Part shown: positions 10,523 to 34,726 of the stretch, one piece after another
Position numbering within the stretch: the stretch's first letter is position 1
How the letters are laid out: the number at the start of each line of letters is the position of its first letter
Virus record (IMG/VR): IMGVR_UViG_3300034062_005626
DNA from: a virus
Lineage: Duplodnaviria > Caudoviricetes
Length of the DNA stretch: 64,000 bases
Direction: 5' to 3' (one strand)
Notes under the pieces: generated by a model
The model's input: only the letters and a program-made list of their open reading frames with translations
Databases searched by the model: none
Told to the model about the DNA's origin: nothing
Made by a program: the position numbers and the translations under genes

Positions 10523-10542
10523 ACGTATATTTATAAAATAAA

Positions 10543-10725
10543 ATGGCAACTACAAGCGCAAATACCGAAGTCACAATATGTGAATATATATGTACAACAG
10601 GAGGAACAGGGAGTTCTGTTGTTGTTGTGAAACCACCACACCCTAATTATAGTGATGTAACAGGAGGAACTGTTGTTCAGTTGAATATGGTAACTATTGG
10701 TGGATTTAACGGATTAAATTCTTAA
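10543..10725 (+). CDS. small hypothetical late protein
   Basis: 60-aa ORF with TATTTAT upstream and A-rich start context. Confidence 0.6.
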   Translation: MATTSANTEVTICEYICTTGGTGSSVVVVKPPHPNYSDVTGGTVVQLNMVTIGGFNGLNS

Positions 10726-10729
10726 AAAA

Positions 10730-11907: not shown

Positions 11908-11930
11908 ATTAATAAATATTTGTTTAATAA

Positions 11931-11958
11931 AAAAAGGTCAGATTAATCTGACCTTTTT
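11931..11958. terminator. bidirectional intrinsic terminator after major capsid gene
   Basis: Perfect inverted repeat AAAAAGGTCAGAT-TA-ATCTGACCTTTTT. Confidence 0.85.
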
Positions 11959-11980
11959 CTTATATTAACCTTTAAATTGA

Positions 11981-13852
11981 TTATCTCAATTCGTTTAAGT
12001 CAAATGAACGAACTCCATCAACTGTGATACGTCCGTAGAAACGGTTATTAACCATTTTCTTAGCGTATCTTGTCATAATACCTTTGATAGGTGTAAAGTT
12101 GAATGGGTTGTACATTGTAGGTGTTAATTGTAGAGGTACATATGGTGCGTAAACGTAACCTGTATCTAACAATGACGTTCCTTTGTGTCCTAACAATACT
12201 TGGTTTGCTGGGAAGTAAGGGTCACGGTATACTTGGTAACGACCTGCTAATGTACCAACTCTTTCAATACCCATATTGTATTGGTCTTGCTCAGGAGATG
12301 CGTTAGATACGTGGAAGTATTCTAAGTCATCAAAGATTGCAGAAACCTCAGAAGAAACAACAATCCAGTTTGCTCCACCTCTCAAAGTAGATTTGTGGAT
12401 TTGTGCAGACAATTGGTTGATTGCCGTAATTAAAGTTTGGTTCCAGTCTTTTTGAGTATAAGAAGTTGTGTTAGACAATCTTCTCCATCCGTTGTAATCC
12501 CAACGTAAGTTCCAAGCCGCTCCTTTACGTAAGTCACGAAGAATTTCACGGTCAATCTCTGCAGCCACTTGCTCAGATAATAAAGCTGTTAATTCAGCCT
12601 CAGCGTCGATGTTATGGAATGCAGAAACGTCTTGTGCCAATTCAGGAGACCATTGTGCTCTTAGTTTTCTTTCTGTAACTGATACAGTAACTGACTCAAG
12701 GTCAAAAGAAACCTCACCAATTTGGTCTTCAAATTCTAATTCTTTGTAACGTCTCCAAGCGGCCATAATAATTGTGTTACCTTGAGTTCCTGACCAAGAA
12801 GATGCGGTTAAAGTTGCTCCTGAATATCCGTCGATTGTAGCTGCGTTAGTACAAGAAACACATACGGGTACTTGTGCGTCGATTTCTAAGTAGATAAATC
12901 CTGTTTGAGAACAAACGTTGTCATAGTAACCACCATTACCACCTGTAGATGATGTACCAAAAGGGGCTTGTGTTAAAGTTGAAGTAGGTCCTACGATTCC
13001 TTGTCCATACTTCTGAGTAACAACTCTATAAAGTAGTGGTGTGAAAGTAGACGTACCAAGGTTTGAAGCCGCTGTAGAATTTGGAGTATAAAGTACAAGA
13101 TTAGATAAGAAGGATTCTGTATCCATTTCTTGTCCATCAGGTCCAATAAGTTTTCCAAGACCAGCATTTGTAAATCCAGATAATGCAACTAAGATTTTTC
13201 TGTATTCTAAGTTACTAGATGTTGTATAAGCTGAAGCAACTAATGCTCCGCCAGACCAAGCAACTGTAGGTGTAAAACCTGTTACAGTTACGAATTGACC
13301 TTTTGAGTAATCAAACAAACCTGCTGGGTTTAATCCTGGTTCTGCTCCTTCATAAAATAAATCATAAAGATTTTTTTGGTACGTTGAATTGTAGTCACCA
13401 GTTCCTGTTGAGTATCCAGCTTGTGTGTTAGTGGACGGGTTACTTGGCGAACCAATAGGTGCATAATGGTCACCTGAAACAACTCCTACAGTGTTTGTAA
13501 TAACACCACCAGAATATCCTTGGATTTTAGGGATAAAGTAGAACAATTTACCGATAGGTAAGTTCATTGCTTGTACCGATACTAAATCATTAGCCAATAA
13601 TTTAGAGAATACACGTCTAACGATAGGGAAAACTACAGTTTCGAAAGAACCTGAACTATCTGAAGACGCAGCTTCGTTAATTAGGTGAGACGCTTGGTTT
13701 TCATATAACTGTGCCATGTTCTCTTTGATGTGTCCTTTAAGACCGTCTAGGAATCCTAATCTATCCCATTTGTTAATTGTATCTTCTTTGATAACTTTAA
13801 GGTGTTTTAACCCGATGTTACCAACAAGACCTGATTCTAATAATGCTCCCAT
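11981..13852 (-). CDS. major capsid protein (T4 gp23-like)
   Basis: VFPIVRRVF..L.ANDLVSVQAMNLPIG, ERKLRAQWSPELAQD, DAEAELTALLSEQVAAEIDREI, YVYAPYVPL, KGIMTRYA. Confidence 0.97.
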   Translation of the reverse strand: MGALLESGLVGNIGLKHLKVIKEDTINKWDRLGFLDGLKGHIKENMAQLYENQASHLINEAASSDSSGSFETVVFPIVRRVFSKLLANDLVSVQAMNLPIGKLFYFIPKIQGYSGGVITNTVGVVSGDHYAPIGSPSNPSTNTQAGYSTGTGDYNSTYQKNLYDLFYEGAEPGLNPAGLFDYSKGQFVTVTGFTPTVAWSGGALVASAYTTSSNLEYRKILVALSGFTNAGLGKLIGPDGQEMDTESFLSNLVLYTPNSTAASNLGTSTFTPLLYRVVTQKYGQGIVGPTSTLTQAPFGTSSTGGNGGYYDNVCSQTGFIYLEIDAQVPVCVSCTNAATIDGYSGATLTASSWSGTQGNTIIMAAWRRYKELEFEDQIGEVSFDLESVTVSVTERKLRAQWSPELAQDVSAFHNIDAEAELTALLSEQVAAEIDREILRDLRKGAAWNLRWDYNGWRRLSNTTSYTQKDWNQTLITAINQLSAQIHKSTLRGGANWIVVSSEVSAIFDDLEYFHVSNASPEQDQYNMGIERVGTLAGRYQVYRDPYFPANQVLLGHKGTSLLDTGYVYAPYVPLQLTPTMYNPFNFTPIKGIMTRYAKKMVNNRFYGRITVDGVRSFDLNELR

Positions 13853-13885: not shown

Positions 13886-15298
13886 TTATTTTATTTTGTT
13901 CATTAAATCCTTCATTCTCATAAATTGAGGATTTTCATAAGCTTTAGATTCAATCAAGTTTGATGCTGAACCATTACTTGGAGTTTTAACAACTTTTTGT
14001 GCAATTGATTCGTTCATCATAGAACTTGGTGACTCACCAATTTCTTCTTTGATTGTTCTGTAAAGTGATTTTGATTCTTTCAAAGATTCAACAGTGTCAA
14101 ATCTTCTTAAGATGTTGATTTTTTCTTGTTTTGTTGTTGAGTGTTCTGTAAACAATCTAGTAGCGTAAGCCAAATTAGAATTGAAAATTGCAACTTCATT
14201 TAATTTATTTCTAAAAAAGTCTAATGCTTTTCTATACTCTTCATTTTTTTCTCTTAAAGATTCCAATTCACGAGATTCAAACGTTAAATTTCTGTTTGGT
14301 GTGATTCCCTTTCTTAAACCTCTACCTTTTTTAGAACCATTTCCATAAGTTCTAGCAGCTTCAGTTGCTTCAACGTCATCATCTTCCTCTTCGTCCATCC
14401 ATCCGTCTGAAATTTCATCTTCGCCTGTTTCAGTAACACCGTGTTTCAATTTTGAAGGATAAATATTGGTTTTAAGTTTTCCAATTTTACCTTTCGCTTT
14501 AAACGCCTCAACAACATTTTCAAGTGATTCTTGGTCGATTTCATAAACTTCTTCATCCATGCCCATATCTTCGTTATAGTCCATTTCATCCATGTACGTT
14601 TCATCCATGCCCATTTCTTCGTTATAGTCCATTTCATCCATGTACGTTTCATCCATGCCCATTTCTTCGTTATAGTCCATTTCATCCATGTACGTTTCAT
14701 CCATGCCCATATCTTCGTTATAGTCCATTTCATTCGACATCGAATCGTCTTCAAAAACCAACTCATATGTTGTATTTTCAGCCATGTTTTCGACAGGTTG
14801 TTCTGTTGGCATTTCAGGTTCGTCAACTTCCATACTGATTAGATATTCGGTATTTGCTTTACCGTCTTTCAAGTGAACATAGTTTCCATCTTTTTGAATG
14901 ATAAAACCGTCCTCATCTCCCATCGCTTTGAAAACTTTCATAACGTCGGACATTGGTGATTTTGTCATATCAAGTGGAGGTAGTTCTTCAGTTGGACCTT
15001 CAGGAGCTCCTTCCATACCATTATCAGTACTTGGTGCCGGTAGTGCTTCCACTTCCTCTTCACCTGATACTTCTACTTCTTCTCCTTCTTCTTCTGAACC
15101 TTGTGGTTGTTCACCACCTTGTGCTTGTTCTTTTAAGGATTTTTTGGAACCCATTATAGATTCCCTTACTAATTCGCCGATTTCTTGTTTCATGGTTGAA
15201 GCAAGTATTCCTTTTGCATTTTCACTAATCGCCTCTTCGATAGACTTCATTTGTAATAAAGCCTCCTCTACTAACGATTCTGATTTTCTGTTACTCAT
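13886..15298 (-). CDS. prohead core scaffolding protein (gp22-like)
   Basis: Acidic, coiled-coil, between protease and MCP; many (I/L/V/M)-x-E sites; C-terminal NEVAIFNSNLAYATRLF segment. Confidence 0.8.
   Translation of the reverse strand: MSNRKSESLVEEALLQMKSIEEAISENAKGILASTMKQEIGELVRESIMGSKKSLKEQAQGGEQPQGSEEEGEEVEVSGEEEVEALPAPSTDNGMEGAPEGPTEELPPLDMTKSPMSDVMKVFKAMGDEDGFIIQKDGNYVHLKDGKANTEYLISMEVDEPEMPTEQPVENMAENTTYELVFEDDSMSNEMDYNEDMGMDETYMDEMDYNEEMGMDETYMDEMDYNEEMGMDETYMDEMDYNEDMGMDEEVYEIDQESLENVVEAFKAKGKIGKLKTNIYPSKLKHGVTETGEDEISDGWMDEEEDDDVEATEAARTYGNGSKKGRGLRKGITPNRNLTFESRELESLREKNEEYRKALDFFRNKLNEVAIFNSNLAYATRLFTEHSTTKQEKINILRRFDTVESLKESKSLYRTIKEEIGESPSSMMNESIAQKVVKTPSNGSASNLIESKAYENPQFMRMKDLMNKIK
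14552..14733 (-). repeat. 48-bp tandem repeat (about 3.8 copies) encoding EMDYNE(D/E)MGMDETYMD
   Basis: Units start at 14552, 14600, 14648, 14696; nearly identical. Confidence 0.95.
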
Positions 15299-15659: not shown

Positions 15660-16370
15660 TTACTTTCCTAAATAATCGGACAATCTTTTCATTAAGTCAA
15701 CAGATTTTTCTAATCCACCACCACTAACTGAAGTATTATCATGTTCTGCCAATTTTTCTTCATATCTTGGTCTATCTTCAGCGTTCAAATAAAGATAAGC
15801 TCCTGGTGTAGATGGTGATGATACAAGGTCAAAACAAATTAATTCAAAATCCTCCTGTACCTCATTTTGGTCTCCTTTTTTTACTAAAGACCCGACCCCA
15901 CGAGAAGATACTCCCATAGTGACTCCTTGTCTCATAAGATTTGCTGCAACATCTCCCTTAGATGTTACAATTCCTCTTTCGTGAAAACCGGGACTTGTTA
16001 ATAATTTAATTTTTCCCATCAATACATTTCCTTCCCACCACGTTTCAGTTATAAGGTGAGAAACTCTATCTAAATCCACTAAAGAAGATTCGGGGTGATT
16101 TAATTCAGAAATTGACATTCCTTTTTTAATGACCTCTTGATATTTTTCAGCCTCTCTTTTTAATATTTTTTCAGGGTATACTCTACCGTTTCTATTTGGA
16201 ACTCCCCATTTTTGAAGTGTTGCATAAAAAACAAACGGTTTAGAATGGTCTAACTGACCATAAGATTCTCTAATCAAATTTTGGTTTCTTGGTTCATTTG
16301 GATTTATAATACCAGCATCCCATTCAACTAGAATCCCTTTACCCGTGTCTTTTGGTCCTAAAATTTTCAT
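15660..16370 (-). CDS. prohead core protease (T4 gp21-like)
   Basis: NRNGRVYP, ELNHPES (catalytic His), GVSSRGVGS (catalytic Ser), FDLVSSPSTPGA. Confidence 0.95.
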   Translation of the reverse strand: MKILGPKDTGKGILVEWDAGIINPNEPRNQNLIRESYGQLDHSKPFVFYATLQKWGVPNRNGRVYPEKILKREAEKYQEVIKKGMSISELNHPESSLVDLDRVSHLITETWWEGNVLMGKIKLLTSPGFHERGIVTSKGDVAANLMRQGVTMGVSSRGVGSLVKKGDQNEVQEDFELICFDLVSSPSTPGAYLYLNAEDRPRYEEKLAEHDNTSVSGGGLEKSVDLMKRLSDYLGK

Positions 16371-18128: not shown

Positions 18129-19958
18129 TTACTTGTTTAATAATTTATTTATTTTGTCATCAATTTCATTGATAGATAATCTACCTTTTGATAAATCTAA
18201 TGTATTATCTCTATCAAAAAGTGTGTTTTCCAAAATTAAATTTAAATCATTTCTGTTAAAATTTTCAGGAGTTACTGCCCCACCTTCTGCGGGTGGTGGT
18301 GGTGGTGCTCCACCTCCAGCTTCAGGAGGTGCTCCTCCTTCTTCAGGTGGCATTCCTCCACCTTCAGGTGCTGCTCCACCTTCAGCAGGTGCTCCACCTG
18401 CTGACGCTTCATCTTTTTTACCATAAAGTGAATCAAGAGTATCGAATAAACCTGTTTTAGTTATAACTTCTGCTGTTTTACCAAGTTCTGCAGATACAGC
18501 TCTTTCAATTCTTTGTTGTTGTAAATCAAGTCTAATTTCATCATCAGAAAATCCAAGAATATGTTTTTTGGCCCATGATGCCGATACAGGGGCAACACTA
18601 TCTTGAATTGGCGCAACCGCATCTTTAAATAATGTTATTTTTTCTTTCCATAATTCTATACCTAATAAATCAGATTGTTTAGATGGGTTGGTTAATCCAA
18701 GTGTAAAATTGGTTAATTCATCTTCGAACCCTAATAGAAACAAATGAATGATTGCGATTTTATTTAATTCTGCAATCATAGATTTTTGAATCCTATTGAT
18801 TGTTCTAGCAAATCTAATATCTAATAGTGATAAATTTTTACCATCACCAACAGCCTCTTCAAATCCTAAATACGCTTTAGGTATTCTTAATGCCGTAACA
18901 AGTTTCTTTTGGATATATTCAATATCAGCAATTTCCGCTAAGTTTTTAGCCCCATCTAATGTTTCAATAGGATTAGTTGCTGCTGGGTCTCTAACAGGGA
19001 TAAAATAATCTTGGTCTACCGCCATTTGATTAAATCTCATGTCAACATTTCCTGTTTTTTGGTCTACAATTTGGTCTCTTTTGAATTTATTAGCAACTCT
19101 TTGTACGTAAGCATCCACATCTTTGTCATCCATATTACCCACAAATACTTTAAACACCCGTCTTTCAGGTGCTCTTGACACTCGGTAAATTAACATCGCA
19201 TCTTCAGATAAAAGTAATTGTTTCCAAATACGACGAGCTTTTTCTAACATTGATGTACCATACGGTAATTTTCTATCGTCACCTAATATTCTAAAGTGAC
19301 CTATCTCCCATGTGTTAAATTCCATGTTTTTTTCTTTCCATGTGAATTTAAGAGCGTCATTTTCAATTTCTGCTGAATATTTTTCAGGTTGAAATTTCAT
19401 CCCTTTTTCTAATCTTTCTATTTGGATATTGGGTAATTGTTGACAACCTACAACTCCTCTTTCGGGGTCTAATTTTAAATAAACAAAATTATCACCAAAC
19501 TTACAAGTGTTTCTAATCCACATTGGTAAGTTTGTATTAATATCCAATTTGTTATTAAACAAATCGGTTAAAACTGATTTAATTCTTTTTGATTCAGAAT
19601 AGATTTGTAAAATGTGCCCGTCTTTATCAGGTGTTGTCGACTCTTCAGCATAAATGTCTAATGCTGCTGAAATTTCGGGGGTATATTCCATGGATTCATA
19701 ATCATAATATGATGCCATTCTTGTTGGTTCATAATAAACCGCCTGTTGATAAAGATTACTTTCTACTTTTTGCCACTGTTGACCAATATACATGGTCTGT
19801 TGAGCTTGAAGTTTTTCTTTTTCAAATTCTTGTTTGTTTGGTGTTTTTAATAATTCTTTTTTATCGAATTTAAAAACGGGTGATTGTTGGTCAATTGTTG
19901 AATTAGGTCCAAAAACTCTACCTAATCTTTGCCAAACTGTATATTTTTCTTCTGCCAT
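18129..19958 (-). CDS. portal protein (T4 gp20-like)
   Basis: YESMEYTPEISAALDIYAEE, PYGTSMLEKARRIWKQL, YRVSRAPERRVF, EYIQKKLVTALRIP; Gly/Pro-rich C-tail. Confidence 0.95.
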   Translation of the reverse strand: MAEEKYTVWQRLGRVFGPNSTIDQQSPVFKFDKKELLKTPNKQEFEKEKLQAQQTMYIGQQWQKVESNLYQQAVYYEPTRMASYYDYESMEYTPEISAALDIYAEESTTPDKDGHILQIYSESKRIKSVLTDLFNNKLDINTNLPMWIRNTCKFGDNFVYLKLDPERGVVGCQQLPNIQIERLEKGMKFQPEKYSAEIENDALKFTWKEKNMEFNTWEIGHFRILGDDRKLPYGTSMLEKARRIWKQLLLSEDAMLIYRVSRAPERRVFKVFVGNMDDKDVDAYVQRVANKFKRDQIVDQKTGNVDMRFNQMAVDQDYFIPVRDPAATNPIETLDGAKNLAEIADIEYIQKKLVTALRIPKAYLGFEEAVGDGKNLSLLDIRFARTINRIQKSMIAELNKIAIIHLFLLGFEDELTNFTLGLTNPSKQSDLLGIELWKEKITLFKDAVAPIQDSVAPVSASWAKKHILGFSDDEIRLDLQQQRIERAVSAELGKTAEVITKTGLFDTLDSLYGKKDEASAGGAPAEGGAAPEGGGMPPEEGGAPPEAGGGAPPPPPAEGGAVTPENFNRNDLNLILENTLFDRDNTLDLSKGRLSINEIDDKINKLLNK

Positions 19959-19991: not shown

Positions 19992-21767
19992 CTAAACTCT
20001 TCTTCCTCCAAATAACCAAGAATAATTTTCATAGTCACTTTTAGTTGGTCCAGTATATGTTCTATTACTATACATATCATTTTGAACCGGAATTGATGGA
20101 TTAAAATTTTGTGACGAATCTTTAAACATAGTTTTGTCTGTTGTCCAAGATTCAATCATCGCTTTTGCTTGTTCTGTTGCCTTTTCTAATTTAGAAAAAG
20201 ATGACTCCCCAACATAAATAGCCATTGCCATTGCCATAATTAAATCGTCGTGTTGACCTTTTTGGTGGTCAGGTCTTCCGTTTACATAAACAAAAGTATT
20301 AAGTTCATTAAAAAGTCTTTGGGACCTAACTGCGAACCCAAACCTTAAAGCTTCTTCGAACGCTTGAACAATTAAAACTCGTTTTGAGTTAAAATTTATT
20401 CCTGGTATTTTATCTTCTTGTTTTGGGTCCCATTTCCATTTGTCCGCGGGATTTACACCATCAACATACAAATTTTTATATCCAAGTTCTTGAAGTTTTC
20501 TAGAAGTTGCAACACCCATACCACCTGTAATATCGGTTACAATAAATGCGTTATACATTATTGCCCATTTATATGCTATTTCCGCCACAATATCAGGTGG
20601 AACTTTTGCAATATATTCTAAGACTTGTTCTCTTTCATCAAAATCAATTATAATAAAAGTTGTAAAATCTTCACTGTCCCCTCTCGAAACGTCCATTCCC
20701 ATAATATATCTATGACCAACAATCGGTTCTTTCCATTGCCAAAGAACACCACCCATAAATTTGTTTTCAGGTTCTTTAATATGGTTTTCTTTTATTTTTT
20801 TCATAGTTTCAGGAGGAATAACATTATCCCCTGACCCTAAAAAGTTACATTCTAATTCTTGTGATATTTTACGTTTATCAAATTTTAATTTTTTTGACAT
20901 CGCCTCAAACCACGATGAATATGCCTTGTATCCGTTTTCAATTTTTTGTTTAATATCCTCAAAATCCCTATCCGATACTTTTATATTTGAATAATCGATA
21001 GTAATTTCATCATCCTTATAGTCAGCTCTATTTAACATGTAATGTATTATATCATCACACTTGATTAGTTTTAAGTCTTTGGAGTATCTAGGGTCTCTAA
21101 ACCAAAACATCTCAGTAATTTTAAAGTCATTCATTCCTTTTACTGCCTGAGTATAAATTGAGTAGTAAATTGGGTCGAATCCGTTGGGTGTTGAAATAAC
21201 AATTACTTTACCACCCGTTGAAAGGGATGCCATACACGCTGACCAAAAATCTTCATCAGCATCAATGTATGCCGCCTCATCAAAAATAAGAATAGTTGGT
21301 GTATACCCACGAAGTGCATCTTTTGATGTTGCAACGGCTTTAACTTCACAACCGTTTGTTAATTTAAAATGTCTTGCTGCATTTTTTTCAGAAGAAAATC
21401 CAACACCTAACCAATTTGGCCATTGTTCAACAAATGAACGTACTTTGTTTGCCATCTCAACAGCAGTATCAAGTTTGTTTGCAATAATTAGAATTTTTTC
21501 AGGTTTTGATTTTTTTGCAAAAACTAATCTTTTTGATGCCCATGCAGATGTTACGGTCGATACACCCGCTTGACGATATTTAAGTGCTATATTTTCTTCA
21601 GCAGTATCGTAATCTTTTACCAAAGTGACTTGGTCATTAAATAGTTCTAGCGGTACGTATTTTGATTGTGTGTTGTCGTAAGTTTGCAAATATGTTTTTA
21701 GTGCGTAAGGTGTGTCGTTTACACATTTAGCATATTCTAATAATATTTGTTCTTTTGAAAGCGACAT
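19992..21767 (-). CDS. terminase large subunit (gp17-like)
   Basis: LKYRQAGVST, ILIFDEAA Walker B, ISTPNG motif C, MGMDVSRGDSED and HDDLIMA nuclease motifs. Confidence 0.95.
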   Translation of the reverse strand: MSLSKEQILLEYAKCVNDTPYALKTYLQTYDNTQSKYVPLELFNDQVTLVKDYDTAEENIALKYRQAGVSTVTSAWASKRLVFAKKSKPEKILIIANKLDTAVEMANKVRSFVEQWPNWLGVGFSSEKNAARHFKLTNGCEVKAVATSKDALRGYTPTILIFDEAAYIDADEDFWSACMASLSTGGKVIVISTPNGFDPIYYSIYTQAVKGMNDFKITEMFWFRDPRYSKDLKLIKCDDIIHYMLNRADYKDDEITIDYSNIKVSDRDFEDIKQKIENGYKAYSSWFEAMSKKLKFDKRKISQELECNFLGSGDNVIPPETMKKIKENHIKEPENKFMGGVLWQWKEPIVGHRYIMGMDVSRGDSEDFTTFIIIDFDEREQVLEYIAKVPPDIVAEIAYKWAIMYNAFIVTDITGGMGVATSRKLQELGYKNLYVDGVNPADKWKWDPKQEDKIPGINFNSKRVLIVQAFEEALRFGFAVRSQRLFNELNTFVYVNGRPDHQKGQHDDLIMAMAMAIYVGESSFSKLEKATEQAKAMIESWTTDKTMFKDSSQNFNPSIPVQNDMYSNRTYTGPTKSDYENYSWLFGGRRV

Positions 21768-25358: not shown

Positions 25359-27215
25359 TTATTTTACCTCTTCAAAATCTACATTTGTAACTTCTTCTTC
25401 ATTATCAGAACTTTCTGAAGCTTGGTTATACAAATTTTGACTTATTTTTTGAAACTCGTTATTTACCTCATCCATTAACGATTTAATATTTTCAATATTT
25501 TTTTCGTTATATGCAGTTTTTAGATTTTCAATTTTAGAAGTGATATTTTCTTTATCTTCATCTGAAATTTTATTTTTTAAATCTTCCAAAGACTTTGAAA
25601 CTTGAAAAATCATAGAATCTGCCGAATTTAATGTGTCAGCATCCTCTTTTAATTTTTTGTCAATTTCGGCATTTTGTTCTGCATCCATTTTCATTTTTTC
25701 AATTTCTTCTTTGGATAATCCTGATGAAGACTCAATTCTAATTGATTGAGTTTTATTTGTTGCTTTGTCTAATGCTGATACATTTATAATACCATTAGCG
25801 TCAATGTCAAAAGTAACTTCAATTTGAGGAACACCTCTTCTTGATGGTGGGAATCCGTCCAAATGGAACTTTCCGATAGTTTTATTGTCTTTAGCCATAG
25901 ACCTTTCTCCTTGCAATACATGAATTTCTACGGAAGGTTGATTATCGACTGCGGTTGAAAATACTTCAGATTTTTTTGTTGGGATTGTTGTGTTTGCACT
26001 TATTAGTTTAGTAAAAACACCCCCCATAGTTTCAATACCCAAAGATAGTGGTGTTACGTCCAATAATAATACATCTGTCACATCCCCACCTAATACACCA
26101 CCTTGGATTGCTGCCCCTAACGCAACCACCTCATCAGGGTTTACACCTTTTGATGGGTCTTTACCAAAAAACTTCTTAACCGCCTCTTGAATTGCGGGGA
26201 TTCTAGTTGAACCACCGACCAAAATAATTTCGTCAATATCTGAAGGTTTTAATCCCGCATTTTTAAGTGCTGATTCACATGGTTTGATAGTACGTTTTAC
26301 TAAATCTTCAGTTAATTGGTCAAATTTAGATTTTGTAATTTTTAAAACTAAATGTTTTGGTCCTGTTGAATCGGCAGTAAGATAAGGTAGATTGATGTCA
26401 GTTGAAGGTGAAGATGACAACTCAATTTTAGCTTTTTCTGCTGATTCTTTTAATCTTTGAATCGCCATAGGGTCTTTTGTGATGTCGATACTTGTTTCGT
26501 TTTTAAATTCACTAACCATGTAATCAATTAAAACTTGGTCAAAATCATCTCCACCTAAATGAGTATCTCCGTCTGTAGATAAAACTTCAAATACACCGTC
26601 ACCAAGTTCCAAAATCGAAACGTCATGAGTACCACCTCCACAGTCAAAAACAACAATTTTCATTTCTTTTGACATTTTATCTAATCCGTATGCTAAAGCC
26701 GCTGCGGTTGGTTCGTTTATAATTCTTCTAACCGTTAATCCCGCAATTTCACCAGCTTCTTTTGTTGCTTGTCTTTGAGCGTCATTAAAATATGCGGGTA
26801 CGGTGATGACCGCCTCAGTTACTTTTTCACCTAAGTAGTCTTCAGCTGTTTGTTTCATTTTTTGTAAAATAGTTGCTGAAATTTCTTGAGGTGAAAATTT
26901 CTTATCGTCAATAAGAACTCTTGGATTATTTTTTTCACTCACAACTTTATAAGGTACTTTTTTGATTTCACTTTTTGTTTCATCAAAACTTGTACCCATA
27001 AATCTTTTAATTGAGTATATTGTTTTTTCAGGATTTGTCACCGCCTGTCTTTTTGCGGGGTCTCCAATTTTTCTCTCACCGTCTTTAACAAATCCAACAA
27101 CTGATGGTGTTGTTCTTTTTCCTTCGCTGTTTGTAATTACTACCGGCTCACGACCTTCCATTACTGCTACACAAGAATTAGTTGTTCCTAAGTCTATACC
27201 AATAATTTTTCCCAT
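25359..27215 (-). CDS. dnaK: Hsp70 chaperone DnaK
   Basis: [37 protein letters not shown] linker, DNQPSV, DFEEVK tail. Confidence 0.98.
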
Positions 27216-27394: not shown

Positions 27395-29437
27395 ATGATT
27401 GAATCAGCAGACAACAACGAAAAAGACAAAGGAAAAAAAACTGAAACCACAGGTAAAACACCCGTGTTGGATAATTTTTCAAGAGATTTAATAAAAGCGG
27501 CAGAAGAGGGTAAATTGGACCCTATTATTGGAAGAGAACAAGAAATTAACAGGATTGCACAAATTCTATCAAGAAGAAAAAAGAATAACCCAATTATTAT
27601 TGGTGAACCTGGTTGTGGAAAAACTGCTATTGTGGAAGGATTAGCCAAAAAAATATTTGAAGGGGATTGTCCTCAGAATTTAGTTAGTAAAAGAATTGTC
27701 TCTTTAGATTTAACCTCTGTAGTTGCAGGAACAAAGTATAGAGGTCAGTTTGAAGAAAGAATGAAAGTTATAATTGAAGAATTATACGCAAATCCTGACA
27801 TCATTATTTTTATAGATGAAATCCACACTATGATTGGTGCCGGAAATGCATCAGGTTCCATGGATGCGTCAAATATATTTAAACCAGCGTTGTCAAGAGG
27901 AGAAATTCAATGTATTGGTGCAACCACATTAGAAGAATATAGAAAAAATATTGAAAAGGATGGGGCTCTTGAAAGAAGGTTTCAAAAAGTTGTTGTAGAC
28001 CCATCAACCAAAGAAGAAACTTTAGAAATACTAAAACAATCCAAAGACCGTTACGAAAAACACCATAAAGTTAGATATAGTGAAGATATTTTGAAACTAT
28101 GTGTTGAATTGGCCGATAGATATATTACCGACAGAGAATTTCCTGATAAGGCGTTTGATATACTTGATGAGGTTGGAGCAAGAAGTCAGGTGGAAATCAA
28201 ATTACCTGAATCTATTGAAAAACTAAAAAAAGAAGCTCAAGAAATAAAAGAACAAAAAATAGAAGTAATTAATAAACAAAGGTACGAAGAGGCTGCAAAT
28301 TTAAGAGATAGAGAAAGAAAAGTTTTATCAGAACTTCAAAAAGAAAAAGAAGATTTTGAAAAAAACAGAGACCTTTACCGAAAAGAAGTTACAGAAGAAA
28401 TTGTTTATGATGTTACTTCTTTGATGACAAAAATTCCTATTAATAAAATCACAACTGATGAATCAATTCAATTAGCATCATTACATGAAGTATTAAACAC
28501 AAGAGTAATTGGTCAAAATGAGGCGGTTTCCAAAATTGCAAGAGCAATACAAAGAAATAAAGTTGGTTTAAATGACCCTAAAAAACCAATATTTAGCGGA
28601 TTATTAATTGGTAATTCAGGTGTTGGTAAAACTGAATTAGCAAAACAGTTGGCAAAACATATGTTTAATAGTGAAGACGCACTTATTAGGTTGGATATGA
28701 GTGAATTTTCAGATAAAGTTGCAACATCAAAATTAACAGGAACATCACCAGGTTATGTTGGGTATGAAGATGGTTCACCATTTTTGAACAAAATTAAAAA
28801 CAAACCTTATTCTGTTATTTTATTGGATGAAATAGAAAAGGCTCACCCAGAAATTTTTAATGTATTTTTACAAATGTTAGATGAAGGGTTTTTAACCGAT
28901 GGTCACGGTAGAAAAATTAACTTTAAAAATTGTATTATCCTTATGACATCAAATGTTGGAACAAGAGTTGTTCAACAATTTGGTACAGGTGTTGGGTTTT
29001 CAACATCACATAAAGAAGAAACAAAAGATGAAGAAATAAAATCTTTATTGGAAAAAGAACTTTTTAAAAAGTTTGCACCTGAGTTTATCAATAGATTTGA
29101 TGATATTGTATACTTTAAAGACTTGAATGACAATGATTTAATGAAGATTTTGAATTTAGAACTTGAAAAATTATATACAAGAGTTTCAAATCTTGAATTT
29201 AATGTTGAAGTTGATGAATCACTAAAAAATCACTTAATTAAAGTGGGTACGGACACTAGATTTGGAGCTCGTATTTTGAAAAGAACGGTTCAAAAGTGGG
29301 TGGATGATGCGATTACAGAAAAAGTACTTTCAGATAAGCCAGATAAAAACTCTACATTTTTACTGTCGTATGATGAAAAAAATAATAAAACAGAAGTTAA
29401 AATAAAAAAACCAACAAAAAGAAAAGGTAAGGTTTAA
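27395..29437 (+). CDS. clpC: ClpC-type AAA+ unfoldase lacking the N-terminal repeat domain
   Basis: Two AAA modules (GEPGCGKT, GNSGVGKT), FIDEIH, LLDEIEKAH, short UVR-like M domain, VGF ClpP-docking loop. Confidence 0.9.
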   Translation: MIESADNNEKDKGKKTETTGKTPVLDNFSRDLIKAAEEGKLDPIIGREQEINRIAQILSRRKKNNPIIIGEPGCGKTAIVEGLAKKIFEGDCPQNLVSKRIVSLDLTSVVAGTKYRGQFEERMKVIIEELYANPDIIIFIDEIHTMIGAGNASGSMDASNIFKPALSRGEIQCIGATTLEEYRKNIEKDGALERRFQKVVVDPSTKEETLEILKQSKDRYEKHHKVRYSEDILKLCVELADRYITDREFPDKAFDILDEVGARSQVEIKLPESIEKLKKEAQEIKEQKIEVINKQRYEEAANLRDRERKVLSELQKEKEDFEKNRDLYRKEVTEEIVYDVTSLMTKIPINKITTDESIQLASLHEVLNTRVIGQNEAVSKIARAIQRNKVGLNDPKKPIFSGLLIGNSGVGKTELAKQLAKHMFNSEDALIRLDMSEFSDKVATSKLTGTSPGYVGYEDGSPFLNKIKNKPYSVILLDEIEKAHPEIFNVFLQMLDEGFLTDGHGRKINFKNCIILMTSNVGTRVVQQFGTGVGFSTSHKEETKDEEIKSLLEKELFKKFAPEFINRFDDIVYFKDLNDNDLMKILNLELEKLYTRVSNLEFNVEVDESLKNHLIKVGTDTRFGARILKRTVQKWVDDAITEKVLSDKPDKNSTFLLSYDEKNNKTEVKIKKPTKRKGKV

Positions 29438-29446
29438 TATTATTTA

Positions 29447-30100
29447 TTAGTATTTTCTTTCGCAAGCAAGTTTTTTTCCTTCATACGTAACCCCGTTATT
29501 TTTAAAATCTTTAGCTTTGGTAATTGCGTTTTGTATGTTATTTGAACCTTGGGTATATGTACCAGCTGGAAAATTTTTGTTAAAGCAAACAGAACCGACA
29601 CTTGTGTTAAAAATACTCACGTAAGCTCCGTCTTTTTTGAAAACATTAGGTTTTTTAGTTTTTTCAAAACCCTTACTCAATAACTCTTTAGTGAGTTCAG
29701 GGTCTGAAGAAAAGGTTGGGTCTTTTTTTGTTTGAATTTTTTTAAGAGCCTCATTATACGACACTTCCACCTGTTGGTAAAATTGACAATTCTTTAAAAG
29801 TTCAGGGGTTATGTTTAATGTACCACTATATAAAACCTTAGAATTATAATCAGTAATAGTCAATGATGCTTTATTTTTATTGTCTTGTGAGCGTATTGTT
29901 AAAATTAATGATACAATTGAACTTATGATTTTTTCTTTTTGAAGCATATATCTATATTTTCCACCTGTGTCTACAGATTTGTAACCCTTATTTTTTAAAC
30001 AACTTATTAATTGTGAGTCCAATGTATTTTTTTCTTCATTAATAACTCTTCTTACAATTTTAGCCAAATCTGACTCAGTTAATCTTACAATTCTTTTCAT
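29447..30100 (-). CDS. MKRIVRLTESDL-leader protein, cargo of unknown function (start moved to 30100)
   Basis: Leader MKRIVRLTESDLAKIVRRVINE shared with two other genes; late motif at 30121-30127. Confidence 0.85.
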   Translation of the reverse strand: MKRIVRLTESDLAKIVRRVINEEKNTLDSQLISCLKNKGYKSVDTGGKYRYMLQKEKIISSIVSLILTIRSQDNKNKASLTITDYNSKVLYSGTLNITPELLKNCQFYQQVEVSYNEALKKIQTKKDPTFSSDPELTKELLSKGFEKTKKPNVFKKDGAYVSIFNTSVGSVCFNKNFPAGTYTQGSNNIQNAITKAKDFKNNGVTYEGKKLACERKY

Positions 30101-30130
30101 AATTAATTTTATTATATACAATAAATATAT

Positions 30131-30138
30131 TATATTTG
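30131..30138 (+). promoter_or_regulatory. Bacteroidota -7 promoter element TATATTTG
   Basis: TAnnTTTG consensus 14 nt upstream of the peptidase ATG. Confidence 0.6.
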
Positions 30139-30152
30139 TAAAAAACAAAATA

Positions 30153-31214
30153 ATGGACCTACAAAAATTTAAAGAACTCCTTTCAGTACCATCGAAAACA
30201 TATCAAGAAGAAGATATGGTAGAATATATTTGTGATGAGTTGGAAAAAATTCATGGAGTTACGTTTTATCGTGATAATATGATGAACATATACGCAACAA
30301 AGGGTACATTAGAAGAAGGTGAATTTTATCCCATGTTTATTGCTCACACTGATACGGTTCACAACAAAATAGATAAGATTGTTGTTAAAGAAGAAAAATT
30401 AAAACGACCATACACTTTTGGTAAAAATTTTCACGATAATCTTGTTGACGTATTGAAAGCTTACGATGTTAATGATTTACCGACAGGCATTGGGGGTGAT
30501 GACAAATGTGGTATTTTTATTTGTTTAGAATTACTTAAACAATTAGACAAAGTAAAAATTGGTTTATTTGTAAGTGAAGAAACGGGTTGTCACGGTTCAT
30601 CAAAATGTGATGAAACTTTTTTGCAAGATGTAGGTTATATCACACAATACGATGCACCTGGCAACCATTTAATTACCGAGATTTGCTCGGGAGTTCGTTT
30701 ATTTGAACGGGATAGTGAATTTTTTACAAAAACATCAAAAGTTATTACCGAATCTTTTGGAAATGAAATGTTAGTTCAATCACATCCTTATACTGATATT
30801 TCACAGTTAAAGAAAAAAATTGATGTGTCTTGCATCAACATGTCTTGCGGTTATTACAATATGCATTCACCACAAGAGTTTATTTCAATTGAAGATGTAA
30901 AATGTGCAATTGAAGCTGGAAAAAACATGGTTAAAGAATTGGGGTTAAAAAAATATGAATATCAATATAAACCGATAGTTTATACACCTACAACCGTTAT
31001 GAACTCATTTGTTGAAGAATTTGATGATGATTTAGATATTTTTGAAGTACAAGAAATAGAAAGTCATCATCGTTTACAAACTATTGATGTATATGAGGAA
31101 AAAGATGGAATCACACTAACTGATGTTTACGATGATGGTTTTATGTTTATTCCTGATGAGGATTTGGCAAATTTATATGAAATTATTAGAGAAAGATTAA
31201 TTAAAAAATATTAA
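30153..31214 (+). CDS. M28/M20/M42-clan zinc peptidase
   Basis: AHTDTVH, GGDDKCG, EETGCHGS, GYYNMHS metal-ligand motifs. Confidence 0.85.
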   Translation: MDLQKFKELLSVPSKTYQEEDMVEYICDELEKIHGVTFYRDNMMNIYATKGTLEEGEFYPMFIAHTDTVHNKIDKIVVKEEKLKRPYTFGKNFHDNLVDVLKAYDVNDLPTGIGGDDKCGIFICLELLKQLDKVKIGLFVSEETGCHGSSKCDETFLQDVGYITQYDAPGNHLITEICSGVRLFERDSEFFTKTSKVITESFGNEMLVQSHPYTDISQLKKKIDVSCINMSCGYYNMHSPQEFISIEDVKCAIEAGKNMVKELGLKKYEYQYKPIVYTPTTVMNSFVEEFDDDLDIFEVQEIESHHRLQTIDVYEEKDGITLTDVYDDGFMFIPDEDLANLYEIIRERLIKKY

Positions 31215-32356
31215 TCAACATAAGGTATTAAGGGTTCGGTATTCAACATATTTAAAATATATTTTAATGGTGCCGAACCTTTTTTGAGTGGATTCCACGA
31301 ACTTCTTTTACGTATACCATAATTAACCATCAAACTATCTTTATCAACATTTAATATTCTTATTTCGTAGTCTCCTGGTATTTGTTTAAATGTGTTAAAT
31401 CCAATTTTATCATTTATAATATTAATTATTTGAAAGTATTTTTTCATTTTTTCTTCTCCACCCTCTTCAATCATACTTTCCAATTCTTCTTCTAATCCTT
31501 CCAAAACTCTTACACTTCTTTTATTAAATTCACTATAAAAAACATCAGCATCCCAAGCCTCATATTGAACTTCATAATATTCAGGAACGTGTGTTCTAAC
31601 TTCTTTTTCTATCGCCTTAAATAATATATCCATCAAACAATCGTCAGGTGTTCCATATCTTACAAATAACATAATCGCATCTCCCCAATTTAAAAAATAC
31701 TTCCAATAACAATTACTTGATTGGTTTTCGATTCCAACAACAGATAAACAATTACAATATATATCATCAATATATTTAGGTACTGCCGCGTCTGTTGCCA
31801 TTTCACTCGCATATGAATACGATTCAATTAAATCATCTTTTGTTCTATTACTTACAGATTCAATAAAGTCTGATATTTTATCTGACTCTTTATTTTTTTT
31901 CCATTCGATTTGGTCATTAACCACTTCAAATTCTTTTAATAAGTTTGGTTGATATATTTTTAATATGTTATATAAAACTTTTAATGATTCACCCTTTAAT
32001 CCGTCTAACACATATCCTTCATCCCAATCATCATTTGCTCTATCCCAATAATCCCATTCCCATGAACCTCTACGCATAGAATCTAAGTATCCCGCTTCAT
32101 ACCAACCGTCACTACCTTCTTCACCATAAGTTTCTTTGAAAAAAAATCTTAGATAGTCTTCTAATCCTTCATGGAAAGTAAAAGTTATACCATCATAACC
32201 TACTTCATAAAAGTCTGAATAATCTTCACCATCGCACCCATCAAAATCAGTATCATATGGGTCAATCTTTCTTTTGTTAAGAGCAAGAATTTTTTGATAG
32301 TCAGTTAATTCAACATCGTCATCCTCTTCTTCAAAAATTTTTGAAAATTTATTCAT
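31211..32356 (-). CDS. acidic hypothetical late protein
   Basis: 381-aa ORF; short leader MNKFSKIFE; palindromic late motif upstream. Confidence 0.75.
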   Translation of the reverse strand: MNKFSKIFEEEDDDVELTDYQKILALNKRKIDPYDTDFDGCDGEDYSDFYEVGYDGITFTFHEGLEDYLRFFFKETYGEEGSDGWYEAGYLDSMRRGSWEWDYWDRANDDWDEGYVLDGLKGESLKVLYNILKIYQPNLLKEFEVVNDQIEWKKNKESDKISDFIESVSNRTKDDLIESYSYASEMATDAAVPKYIDDIYCNCLSVVGIENQSSNCYWKYFLNWGDAIMLFVRYGTPDDCLMDILFKAIEKEVRTHVPEYYEVQYEAWDADVFYSEFNKRSVRVLEGLEEELESMIEEGGEEKMKKYFQIINIINDKIGFNTFKQIPGDYEIRILNVDKDSLMVNYGIRKRSSWNPLKKGSAPLKYILNMLNTEPLIPYVD

Positions 32357-32372
32357 ATATTTATAAATATAT
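32355..32372. promoter_or_regulatory. 18-bp perfect palindrome containing late motif (ATATATTTATAAATATAT)
   Basis: Self-complementary; contains TATTTAT on both strands. Confidence 0.6.
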
Positions 32373-32394
32373 TGTGAAATATAAATATTTGTAT

Positions 32395-32402
32395 TATATT
32401 TG
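32395..32402 (+). promoter_or_regulatory. Bacteroidota -7 element TATATTTG for tmRNA
   Basis: Consensus match with TTG 20 nt upstream; 37 nt before the mature 5' end. Confidence 0.55.
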
Positions 32403-32439
32403 TTTTATAGTTCTTTGAAAATAGTCATTTAAGATATAT

Positions 32440-32827
32440 GGGCCTATATTGGAATTGACGGGCGTTGGTTGAATAAAAGAAGCATGTCGGGACTGAATTA
32501 ATCTCGTTAAAAACTGATTCAAAAAACAACTGGCAATGTGCTAAACAACCTTGAGACTTTGGGACTTATCTCAACTCAAGAAGTTACTGTAGCTTAATTA
32601 AGATACGGAAACGGGGGGTCGGCAGACATATAACCTAGCAACAGAAGTCGTAGTTGTGGTGGATTACTATTGAACCCTAAATCGAATGGTGACCATTGGT
32701 TGTTGATTTACGATGGTGAAGAACAAATCAACTATTTTGGAATATTAGAAAATATTAACCTAAACGTGTAGTTGTCTTTTAGACAAAACGAGCCGGACGA
32801 GGGAGTCGGAGCCCTCTAGGTCCACCA
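32440..32827 (+). ncRNA. ssrA: tmRNA (388 nt)
   Basis: Acceptor stem GGGCCTA/TAGGTCC with G3:U70, A73 and encoded CCA; 5' GGAATTGACGG; PK1 (CGGGA/TCTCG, TGAATT/GATTCA); tag ORF 32532-32597; CCTAAACGTGTAG and GGAC 3' elements. Confidence 0.95.
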
Positions 32828-32830
32828 ACT

Positions 32831-32864
32831 AATCCCACTATTTAATTATGGTGGGATTTTTTTT
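32831..32864 (+). terminator. intrinsic terminator after tmRNA
   Basis: AATCCCACTAT...ATGGTGGGATT hairpin plus T-tract. Confidence 0.85.
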
Positions 32865-32883
32865 AATATTTTTTTCAAAAAAA

Positions 32884-32914
32884 TTTGGAGATATATAAAA
32901 AACGTGTATCTTTG
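32884..32914 (+). promoter_or_regulatory. Bacteroidota sigma-70 promoter TTTG-N19-TATCTTTG
   Basis: -33 TTTG at 32884-32887, 19-nt spacer, -7 at 32907-32914. Confidence 0.8.
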
Positions 32915-32953
32915 TATTGTAATCAGTTATTAACCATCTAAAAAATCAAAATT

Positions 32954-33550
32954 ATGAAAAAATTGTTTTTTGTCTCTACATTATTTATGTCTTTTTTCTT
33001 TTCATCTCAAGTTAAGTATACGTTAAAAAAGTACCCAATGTACTCTAAAATATGGGAAAAAAAATATGACAAAACTGAAAAAGATGAAGATGGGTTGCCT
33101 TTAATTGTTTTTTCACCAAAAGGTTACAACACGTTTGGAGACAATACCTCAACTTTTAAAAATGTAAGTCAAACTAAAGTACAATCATATTTGATTTCAG
33201 AATTAAATAAATTTAGAAAGGACTACAAAAAAAATTCGATTTCTAAGAGTGGTGTTTTAACAAGTAAAAGTATCAATGATGCAAAAAATATATCGACGGT
33301 TAAAGATTACAATATTTCTAAAGAAAAAAATGTCAAAATTGTTTACGACTTTATTCCTGTAGATTTTTTCTCTCGTGTGGACGTAAAAAAATATGAAATT
33401 GAAAAAATTATTGCAGAGTCTGTTTTCGATTGGTTTGTTGCAAACGATGAAGGAATGTCTTTGTTGTTGACTGAAAAAAGAAAAGAATTTGGACTTGGCG
33501 TTTATATTAGTGAAACCAAAGGAGTTACAATTGTGATTCGAGGAAAATAA
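32954..33550 (+). CDS. secreted protein with degenerate CAP/SCP-like domain
   Basis: Signal peptide MKKLFFVSTLFMSFFFSSQ; LISELNKFRKDY and DWF...LL...KEFGLG resemble CAP motifs. Confidence 0.45.
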   Translation: MKKLFFVSTLFMSFFFSSQVKYTLKKYPMYSKIWEKKYDKTEKDEDGLPLIVFSPKGYNTFGDNTSTFKNVSQTKVQSYLISELNKFRKDYKKNSISKSGVLTSKSINDAKNISTVKDYNISKEKNVKIVYDFIPVDFFSRVDVKKYEIEKIIAESVFDWFVANDEGMSLLLTEKRKEFGLGVYISETKGVTIVIRGK

Positions 33551-33577
33551 AAAAAGGGGTTAATAAACCCCTTTTTT
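33549..33577. terminator. bidirectional terminator between convergent genes
   Basis: AAAAAGGGGTT-AAT-AAACCCCTTTTT. Confidence 0.85.
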
Positions 33578-33606
33578 TATTTCTTATTACAACTTAAATG
33601 TTGGTA

Positions 33607-34155
33607 TTAAACTTCAAAAGCCGAAGCTAAGTCTTTTTGTGAAGACATACCACAAATTTTTTCTTGGAAAAATTGTCTAGTATCTGAAAATTTTGTAGTT
33701 CTTGCTGTTCCCGCAGTGGCAGGGAAACTGATTGCATCAAAAGTTATTTTCTTACTATCATAAAAAGTATAAAAAGTTCCAGTTGAACAATCAAAATATA
33801 TTGTTTTAGATATTGATTGACCAGCAATAGCTTTAGCTGACTCTGCTCCCGCCATATCACCAGTATCTACTTTAGAACCAGCCTTTGAACCATCTTTTCT
33901 AAAATAAAGTAAACCTGGCATAGTACATTGTGTGTTGCTGGTTTTTGTAACTTTTGCTCCTCCTTTAATAATTAAATTTACACTTGGAAGCCAAGATTCA
34001 ACAGGTTGATTACTATTATCCACAACTCTTCCAACTGGACTGTCCGCAATTCCAAAACCTAAATTTGCAGGAATAGTCATATCCTCACTTTCTTTAATCA
34101 CCCTTCTTACAATTCGAGCCAAATCTGACTCAGTTAATCTAACAATTCTTTTCAT
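33607..34155 (-). CDS. MKRIVRLTESDL-leader protein, cargo of unknown function
   Basis: Leader MKRIVRLTESDLARIVRRVIKE. Confidence 0.85.
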   Translation of the reverse strand: MKRIVRLTESDLARIVRRVIKESEDMTIPANLGFGIADSPVGRVVDNSNQPVESWLPSVNLIIKGGAKVTKTSNTQCTMPGLLYFRKDGSKAGSKVDTGDMAGAESAKAIAGQSISKTIYFDCSTGTFYTFYDSKKITFDAISFPATAGTARTTKFSDTRQFFQEKICGMSSQKDLASAFEV

Positions 34156-34172
34156 AATTTTTTTGTTATAAG

Positions 34173-34726
34173 TTAATTTTTTTATTATCTTTGTTTAATA
34201 AATATACATTCAATTATAAAAATTCATTTTATGTGAACTTTTTTAATTAATGTCTTTAAATGGTTTATTTTTTGGACTTTTCTCGGTTCTTCCGTATGAT
34301 GTTCCTTTTGTGTCCGCTGAAGAAACTTTTTCACTAGAATTAAATTGACCCAAGTGACGCTCAACCTCATCAACGATGTCATTTTGTTCATCATATAACC
34401 CACCAATGTTAGAACCATATGGTACATATTCCATATCTGTAGATATGTAAGCACCAATAGTTTTGTATCCAAGTTTTTTTACTGCAGCTAACGCCTCTTC
34501 ATAGTCCGTTTTATTTTTAATTGAGTAGACCGCTCTTTGAATTGCTCTTTCGTCAGTACCTAATCCAGACATTGCCTTAGTAATTGATTTAATTGCGTTT
34601 TCACCATTACCCTCACTAATAACCCGTCTAACAATACGTGCTAAGTCTGATTCTGTAAGTCTTATAATTCTTTTCATAATTTTTTAATTATTTTAATTTT
34701 TTTATTATCTTTGTTTAATAAATATA
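34173..34726. repeat. 34-bp identical direct repeat (34173-34206 and 34693-34726) containing late motif
   Basis: TTAATTTTTTTATTATCTTTGTTTAATAAATATA upstream of both tandem leader genes, 520-bp period. Confidence 0.9.
34243..34677 (-). CDS. MKRIIRLTESDL-leader protein with annexin-like repeat
   Basis: Leader then AIKSITKAMSGLGTDERAIQRAV, the annexin (A)MKGLGTDE signature. Confidence 0.7.
   Translation of the reverse strand: MKRIIRLTESDLARIVRRVISEGNGENAIKSITKAMSGLGTDERAIQRAVYSIKNKTDYEEALAAVKKLGYKTIGAYISTDMEYVPYGSNIGGLYDEQNDIVDEVERHLGQFNSSEKVSSADTKGTSYGRTEKSPKNKPFKDIN

Follow-up and report, generated by a model that had tools for sequence, protein, structure and literature searches.

Three minus-strand genes in the IMG/VR virus record IMGVR_UViG_3300034062_005626 (Duplodnaviria; Caudoviricetes) encode proteins that share an N-terminal leader of 22 amino acids, MKRI(V/I)RLTESDLA(K/R)IVRRVI-x-E. 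The genes lie at positions 29447-34726 of a 64,000-nt stretch of this record (hereafter the window), an AT-rich portion (31% G+C) of a large phage. Leader gene 1 (29447..30100, 217 aa) has its leader codons at 30035-30100, leader gene 2 (33607..34155, 182 aa) at 34090-34155 and leader gene 3 (34243..34677, 144 aa) at 34612-34677. An earlier note on this DNA had given the positions and strand of all three correctly; the true start of gene 1, ATG 30100, was set by aligning it with other leaders. A six-frame search found exactly three copies of the leader in the window.

The shared leader and its promoter region

The three leaders are identical to one another at 19-20 of 22 amino acids, and their residues 19-22 read VINE, VIKE and VISE. 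What follows the leader, which we call the cargo (195, 160 and 122 aa in genes 1, 2 and 3; cargo families L11, L5 and L0), is unrelated from gene to gene, as the earlier note had stated. The cargoes have no BLASTP similarity to one another (best E 0.94-6.8) and match no Pfam or PHROG family. In AlphaFold models a leader helix at residues 9-24 is followed by a predicted beta-rich domain in the 182-aa protein or a predicted all-helical domain in the 144-aa protein. For the L5 model, no fold match was obtained in the PDB or among AFDB clusters. Most of the top PDB rows for the L0 model are annexins at non-significant values (E 0.2-1, TM ~0.3), which gives weak support to a possible annexin-like fold. 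A structure search of the Atlas with the leader only returned generic single-helix matches.

The coding DNA of the three leaders had been described as nearly identical, and a 39-mer that is the start of the gene at 30100 had been quoted. This description fits the genes at 30100 and 34155, which agree at 60/66 nt with three synonymous and two amino-acid differences. It does not fit the gene at 34677, which agrees with either of the others at 50/66 nt and has 9-11 synonymous differences from them. Between the tandem leaders (34155 and 34677) there are 11 synonymous differences and two amino-acid differences, and the longest common run is 12 nt. Because synonymous differences so outnumber replacements in this pair, the codon pattern indicates that the leader peptide itself is under selection, and the tandem genes would share their leader because the peptide is selected and not because the DNA was copied recently. 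Similarly, the leader is essentially invariant in an alignment whose cargo is 28-54% identical.

As reported earlier, a 34-bp block occurs in two identical copies (34173..34206 and 34693..34726, both minus strand) with a period of 520 bp; none would be expected by chance (100 shuffles). Copy 1 contains the late-type motif ATATTTAT and 5' untranslated region (UTR), and copy 2 contains the late-type motif and the UTR of leader gene 3. The gene at 30100 is without the block and shares only the short ATATTTAT motif (~30121-30128). On the plus strand, each copy of the block contains a TATCTTTG box (34186-34193 in copy 1 and 34706-34713 in copy 2), which matches the Bacteroidota -7 promoter consensus TAnnTTTG. 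The box in copy 2 lies 33 nt before the ATG (34746) of a divergent gene for a pyrimidine-dimer glycosylase. The box in copy 1 is an orphan, with nothing ahead of it but the 3' end of the 144-aa gene, and any early activity of this box would yield an antisense RNA to that gene. TATCTTTG also precedes g198, the gene convergent with leader gene 2, and TATATTTG precedes the gene for an M42 peptidase.

By its likeness to T4's TATAAATA, we infer that ATATTTAT is a putative late-promoter element. It precedes structural genes (scaffold, protease, fibre and others) as well as all three leader genes, and is not found upstream of the genes for ClpC, DnaK, the M42 peptidase, g198 or the glycosylase. A genome-wide census was made on the relative G002 (292 kb, 99% complete). 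In G002 the motif is strand-biased with the genes (81 vs 30 copies) and lies within 90 nt upstream of the ATG in 63 of 356 open reading frames (ORFs).

The 34-bp block thus looks like a promoter piece with two faces, carrying a late motif on one strand and, on the opposite one, a -7 box of the host type. Such a role would explain why it is conserved across the clade at heads that face a plus-strand gene. Because the -7 box of copy 1 is an orphan, this copy appears to be the product of a duplication of the head at the DNA level, and the block would have been copied when a second leader gene came into the slot. The proposal that promoter and leader had been duplicated together in the tandem pair therefore holds for the block, but not for the leaders, which are not a recent DNA duplicate. 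In the 98%-identical strain L001 the two copies of the block differ at two positions, so their perfect identity in the window is strain-specific.

Conserved heads and exchangeable cargo around ClpC

Comparison with relatives shows how the locus varies. We fetched 80 related contigs with ClpC as the anchor, oriented them alike and sorted the products of the ORFs called on them into clusters. The backbone does not vary; it consists of g437, g257, g80, slot A, ClpC, slot B, M42 peptidase, g381, the gene for transfer-messenger RNA (tmRNA; not in every case), slot C and the glycosylase. Slots A-C hold 79 leader genes (38 non-redundant loci) with at least 25 BLAST-distinct cargo families, as singles or in arrays of up to four, and in each array the leading gene comes with a promoter block of its own. 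The remaining same-strand occupants of the slots bear other leader classes. Among relatives whose ClpC is 82-100% identical, the cargo genes at corresponding places differ. Neither of the two outcomes that the earlier note had named as refuting its view of promoter, UTR and leader as a portable head was seen: cargo content varies among relatives, and the cargoes are not homologous.

Comparison of the window with relatives that have 94-98% identical flanks locates the borders of exchange. Leader gene 1 and its own promoter form an insertion/deletion cassette of 706 bp (29425..30130, minus strand). Homology to L004, L005, L006, L077, L010, L022 and L040 ends at 29424/5 and resumes at 30130/1, and the empty site contains only the host-type promoter of the M42 peptidase gene. 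A homologue of the L11 cargo was found in one related contig only, L003. In slot C, the left border is a plus-strand head (32831..32976) made up of the tmRNA terminator, a host-type promoter (TTTG ... TATCTTTG), a 5' UTR and the first ~23 nt of a signal-peptide gene. In L004, L010 and L077, unrelated genes have heads 93-96% identical to this one, and the similarity is gone after ~20 coding nt (~32976). On the right side of the slot, similarity resumes within or at the end of a leader (~34619, or 34090-34226). What is replaced is thus the body of a convergent module that lies between two conserved heads.

Heads and cargoes have incongruent histories. The L0-cargo gene of L077 has 64/66 leader nt and the UTR in common with the L5-cargo gene of the window, whereas the L0-cargo genes of L077 and of the window agree at only 52/66 leader nt. 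The L3-cargo gene of L004 is chimeric: its 5' UTR and first ~45 leader nt are of the window type, and its last ~20 leader nt and cargo are like those of the L3 gene of L010. A multi-nucleotide leader variant (TENDL for TESDL) is common to different cargo genes of one lineage. For leaders on different cargoes, the synonymous-codon difference is 0.276 within a locus and 0.401 +/- 0.028 between loci (0 of 5000 random draws as low). For leaders on the same cargo in diverged genomes it is 0.44, as large as for leaders on different cargoes (0.42). These values indicate that heads follow the genome lineage and not the cargo, and the sequence comparisons argue that heads evolve in concert through recombination or gene conversion. 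The portability proposed for the head is borne out by the different cargo at the same places, the near-identical heads on unrelated cargo and the chimeric head.

Slot C also shows how leader genes are paired with a second gene. The plus-strand gene g198 (32954..33550; 198 aa, N-terminal signal peptide, MKKLFFVSTLFMSFFFSSQ...) is convergent with leader gene 2, and its product, apparently exported, has no Pfam or PHROG match. Between the two genes lies a hairpin (33545..33582) that resembles a bidirectional intrinsic terminator, with an A-run, a GGGG/CCCC stem and a T-run (dG -19.2 kcal/mol, z -5.8; as good a fold in 0 of 200 shuffles). In most cases a plus-strand gene of 140-250 aa precedes the leader genes of a slot; it encodes a Flavobacteria-style signal peptide or membrane segments and has a promoter of the host type. 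The partner genes are of several kinds (rhomboid domain, DUF2927, CAP and others of unknown type). Some pairings recur (c30-L3, c35-L4, c40-L1 and c39-L0), and the same pairs are also found in different slots. The g198-L5 pair is again tail-to-tail in an unrelated context, L226, within a long leader-gene array, with partners 64% and cargoes 50% identical. This second occurrence shows, by sequence, that the pair is co-mobile.

We hypothesize that partner and cargo are functionally linked. For example, a late, leader-tagged protein that is packaged and set free on entry might be matched by an early exported or membrane protein that recognizes or neutralizes the same class of protein, and the partner could block the ejected proteins of superinfecting relatives in the envelope. 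In T4, Spackle blocks the gp5 lysozyme. We consider this form of the hypothesis doubtful; if it were true, the modules would be a polymorphic, effector/immunity-like arsenal, shuffled as two-gene cassettes between two inverted conserved heads.

Several other features of the region vary among relatives or stand apart from the leader genes. The gene for DnaK (25359-27215, minus strand) also sits in a variable slot: only about a dozen of the 80 contigs have it, and small unrelated genes are in slot A elsewhere. The phage-encoded tmRNA gene (32440-32827, plus strand; Rfam RF00023, 75.7 bits) is directly followed by a terminator hairpin (32831-32858). In relatives, slot C often holds genes like those for homing endonucleases (GIY-YIG/NUMOD3-like and LAGLIDADG), adjoining the tmRNA gene; these could promote local exchange. 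The window is without a GIY-YIG/NUMOD3-like gene of ~300 aa that is found between the tmRNA gene and the next gene in L001, L004, L010 and others, a difference of 935 bp in the comparison with L001. In L066-L070, L073 and L079 the ClpC frame (~10001-12504) is split or ~500 bp longer, with a 392-aa ORF separating the halves in L066; the cause may be an intron, an intein or an inserted endonuclease. A blastn search of the region against cultured and reference phage records gave a sole match of 60 bp (84%; window 32899-32958), to Prevotella Lak megaphages. It falls in the promoter/5' UTR upstream of g198 and fits a common Bacteroidota-type promoter region.

A candidate capsid-targeting leader

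The three leader genes are best explained as late genes of a ~290-kb freshwater phage of the T4 type with a predicted host in the Bacteroidota. IMG/VR contains hundreds of related contigs, the largest of 292 kb, and the metagenome runs that contain this stretch come from lake or other freshwater samples (2016-2024). The closest cultured capsid proteins, ~42% identical, are from Flavobacterium and Microcystis phages. By gene set (a ClpA/C-type ATPase, a peptidase, sometimes DnaK, and a T4-type head) and habitat, the lineage appears to match the "moraphages", which are known from metagenomes, have predicted hosts in the Flavobacteriia and were described without mention of N-terminal leaders (PMC12619734).

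The head module of the window has the T4 gene order: large terminase (TerL, 19992-21767), gp20-type portal (Portal_T4, 18129-19958), T4 gp21-type prohead protease (Peptidase_S77; 15660-16370, minus strand), a scaffold-like protein (13886-15298, minus strand) and a gp23-type major capsid protein (Gp23; 11981-13852, minus strand). The protease (Pfam 1.3e-23; PHROG "head maturation protease", 6.7e-43) is presumed to be the enzyme that removes the leader. Among leader-bearing records, the four with a completeness of 96% or more (G002, G003, G006 and G007) all have Peptidase_S77. The capsid protein has a predicted maturation site, ...HLINE|AASS, and this LINE|AA site presumably corresponds to the maturation position of T4 gp23. 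The end of the leader, hydrophobic-x-Glu, resembles this predicted site. The scaffold-like protein (470 aa) is extremely acidic and has about four tandem copies of a 16-residue acidic unit (...MDETYMDEMDYNEEMG...). We speculate that these repeats are multivalent docking sites for the basic leaders. Co-folding of residues 1-45 of the 182-aa protein with the scaffold-like protein gave a score of 0.00, which is evidence neither way on binding.

We favor an explanation in which the leader is a capsid-targeting, protease-removed tag on packaged proteins, with heads exchanged and cargo replaced behind them, and we consider it probable, though well short of certain. The leader would dock the protein to the assembling prohead core, the gp21-type protease would cut after hydrophobic-x-Glu (VI-x-E, position 22), and the unrelated cargo domains would stay inside the head and probably leave with the DNA. 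Promoter, 5' UTR and leader constitute a conserved head that is homogenized and exchanged within the lineage by homologous recombination or gene conversion, and cargo bodies are replaced, inserted or deleted in at least three slots around ClpC. In slot C, the unit exchanged is the body of a module made up of the early exported-protein gene, the shared bidirectional terminator and at least one late leader gene. The part that concerns the evolution of the locus, conserved heads and exchangeable cargo, is shown by the sequence comparisons described above. The capsid-targeting function is well motivated and would follow from sequence features and from analogy with T4.

Leaders from across the clade are consistent with a cleavage site. 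A protein search with the 182-aa protein returned full-length homologues and many proteins that match in the leader alone. A degenerate DNA pattern for residues 6-16, run on IMG/VR, matched more than 116 stretches, with 132 unique leaders among the matches listed. Among these 132, the leader begins at Met1 in 118, position 20 is I, L or V in all, position 22 is Glu in 119, and from position 23 onward even the commonest residue reaches at most 26%. Conservation that stops precisely at hydrophobic-x-Glu would be expected of a gp21-type cleavage site. The leader was not found by tblastn in 50,697 cultured-phage records, and a literature text search did not find the motif LTESDL.

Six metagenomic proteins (P0006, P0007, P0008, P0011, P0012 and P0023) have a second, internal leader motif (..ESDL.RIV.R.I.E) between two domains. 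The internal copy in P0006 still starts MKRIIRLTESDL, as if two tandem genes had been fused. Such copies might be processed as in protease-cut polyproteins.

The leader is one of several in these genomes. In G002 at least 13 genes carry it, at places spread over 10-268 kb. Its other recurrent N-terminal classes are MKIIITE.QY; MNLQENIRRI / MR.LI.HILKEE; ..FIISE.EK.RIL..H; and LLEEI.RF.RM, and the genes with these other leaders (loci L095-L109) form long consecutive runs, for example at 223-258 kb.

Several points weigh against the capsid-targeting explanation or limit it. Targeting, cleavage and ejection are all drawn for this clade from likeness to T4. The leader has 22 residues, compared to 10 in T4, and the two are alike only in starting with MK and ending with I-x-E. 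After the presumed cut, most of the 132 sequences continue with Q, N, S or E. About 60 of the 356 ORFs of G002 carry recurrent N-terminal leaders (two largest similarity groups), which would be a very large load if all were packaged. The L11 cassette has no flanking direct repeat, and its insertion is therefore not a head-to-head recombination; the suggestion that recombination between head homologies swaps cargo agrees with the slot-C replacement, which is bounded by heads, but not with this cassette. Lastly, conservation of the leader alone extends BLAST alignments, and some breakpoints at the leader mark the end of constraint and not a recombination event. Because the leader is constrained in this way, the incongruence of heads and cargoes is stronger evidence for exchange than are the ends of alignments.

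We considered other functions for the leader peptide. It could be a recognition tag for another machine, either a modifying enzyme or the phage ClpC/DnaK chaperones. The three genes adjoin the phage genes for ClpC and DnaK, and such strong conservation of a short helix points to a single specific partner that binds it. However, the leader genes of G002 are mostly far from ClpC, DnaK is found in only a minority of relatives, and the abrupt end of conservation behind hydrophobic-x-Glu agrees with a protease site; we think such a tag unlikely. A radical-SAM-linked tag was rejected because radical-SAM genes are absent from three of the four near-complete leader-bearing genomes. Alternatively, the leader could be an amphipathic helix, kept on the mature protein, that targets a membrane or assembly site or mediates oligomerization, with the proteins acting in the infected cell. 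The models do predict a single basic amphipathic helix at residues 9-24. A retained helix does not readily account for the position of the motif at the exact N-terminus of most of the leaders listed, the conservation of Glu22 together with a hydrophobic position 20, the internal copies between domains of longer metagenomic proteins, or a late-type promoter motif in common with head and fibre genes, and we regard it as improbable.

Two further explanations would do without a tag or without exchange. The genes could be ordinary paralogues that arose by whole-gene duplication and diverged in their C-terminal parts past recognition, with no recombination between head and cargo. True tandem paralogue arrays do exist in relatives (three to four genes of L1, L2 and L0 in L047, L045 and L041). 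We nevertheless find simple paralogy very unlikely for the window, where the cargoes differ in length and predicted class as well as having no detectable similarity. In addition, synonymous sites of the leader are unsaturated between unrelated cargoes of one lineage and saturated between the same cargo across lineages, and chimeric heads exist. Finally, the 5' coding sequence could be conserved because it acts as nucleic acid, for example in translation initiation or as an mRNA element. In favor of this, the upstream block is kept at the DNA level, and the host phylum does not make strong use of Shine-Dalgarno sequences. The excess of synonymous over replacement differences in the tandem pair, and the same pattern in the 132 divergent copies listed, bring this last explanation close to refutation, and we give it almost no credence.

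Comparison with known systems

The variable array had been called integron-like, and the term turns out to apply as an analogy only. As in integrons, variable gene arrays occupy a fixed place and a recurring sequence is found at each cassette border. Unlike in integrons, there are no attI or attC-like sites, the only recurrent borders are the promoter/leader heads, and most cassettes have their own promoter. The tyrosine integrase family PF00589 is absent from four near-complete relatives, a resolvase is found in only one of them, and no recombinase match was obtained among the 18 window ORFs run against Pfam. From these comparisons, the exchange looks like homologous recombination or gene conversion and not like integron-type recombination.

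The nearest known mechanism of exchange is the modular shuffling of T4-type phages mediated by PeSL (early promoter and stem-loop) sequences (PMC2839356). In both cases, where close relatives differ by the insertion, deletion or replacement of a gene, short conserved regulatory sequences recur at its borders, and a direct repeat can flank a single gene (here 34 bp, 520 bp apart). The slot-C replacement is likewise bounded by heads, at ~32976 and ~34619, with the L11 cassette as an exception. The sequences themselves differ. The PeSL repeat combines a sigma-70-type early promoter with a stem-loop terminator, whereas the 34-bp block has no stem-loop and the hairpin at 33545-33582 lies mid-module. 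The heads described here are made up of a late-type motif, a coding leader and, on the opposite strand, a host-type -7 box.

Giant phages such as phiKZ, 201phi2-1 and SPN3US have many head-internal or ejection proteins with N-terminal propeptides that are removed after Glu by a T4-related prohead protease (PMC5694885, PMC10052503). These propeptides are not one near-invariant tag on unrelated cargoes, and both the lineage and the cleavage motif (A/S/G-x-E) differ (PMC5694885, PMC10052503). There is also some likeness to polymorphic toxin/immunity cassettes: a constant N-terminal trafficking part is joined to a variable C-terminal part, and a small partner gene travels along (g198-L5). Unlike in those cassettes, no toxin domain is recognized here, and the partner is exported, early and convergent rather than co-transcribed.

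The closest parallel is with the internal proteins of T-even phages. Reportedly, in studies by Repoila et al. in 1994 and Mullaney and Black in 1996, these proteins carry a capsid-targeting sequence (CTS) that is cut by gp21. To our knowledge, earlier work on the T-even ip loci left the mechanism of diversification largely inferred. IPI, IPII, IPIII, Alt and the products of the polymorphic ip loci have only the capsid-targeting leader in common, and their genes are in variable hotspots (PMC3012670, PMC9026906, PMC12373910). The T4 CTS is a 10-residue propeptide of internal proteins, and gp21 cuts after (L/I)-x-E (PMC9026906). The phages described here similarly have a T4-type head module with a gp21-family protease, unrelated small ORFan proteins that share only an N-terminal leader ending in (I/L)-x-E, and leader genes in variable hotspots between conserved genes. 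In contrast, the leader is 22 aa long and agrees by inspection with the T4 CTS (MKTYQEFIAE) only at its two ends, a genome has leaders of several classes and dozens of genes that bear them, and leader genes are commonly paired with an early exported-protein gene.

New here are the 22-aa leader family, the evidence at the DNA level for exchange of heads, the two-faced promoter block and the pairing with exported partners. If the leader is a capsid-loading tag, then an abundant lake lineage delivers a large and fast-turning set of proteins with its DNA. Nature would thereby provide a library of candidate factors for anti-defence or for the take-over of Bacteroidota hosts, and the 22-residue tag might be usable for loading foreign proteins into such heads. 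The comparative data provide DNA-level evidence of how these sets diversify, with heads evolving in concert and cargo replaced behind them. The pairing with an early exported-protein gene is outside the T4 picture and provides a concrete, testable hypothesis.

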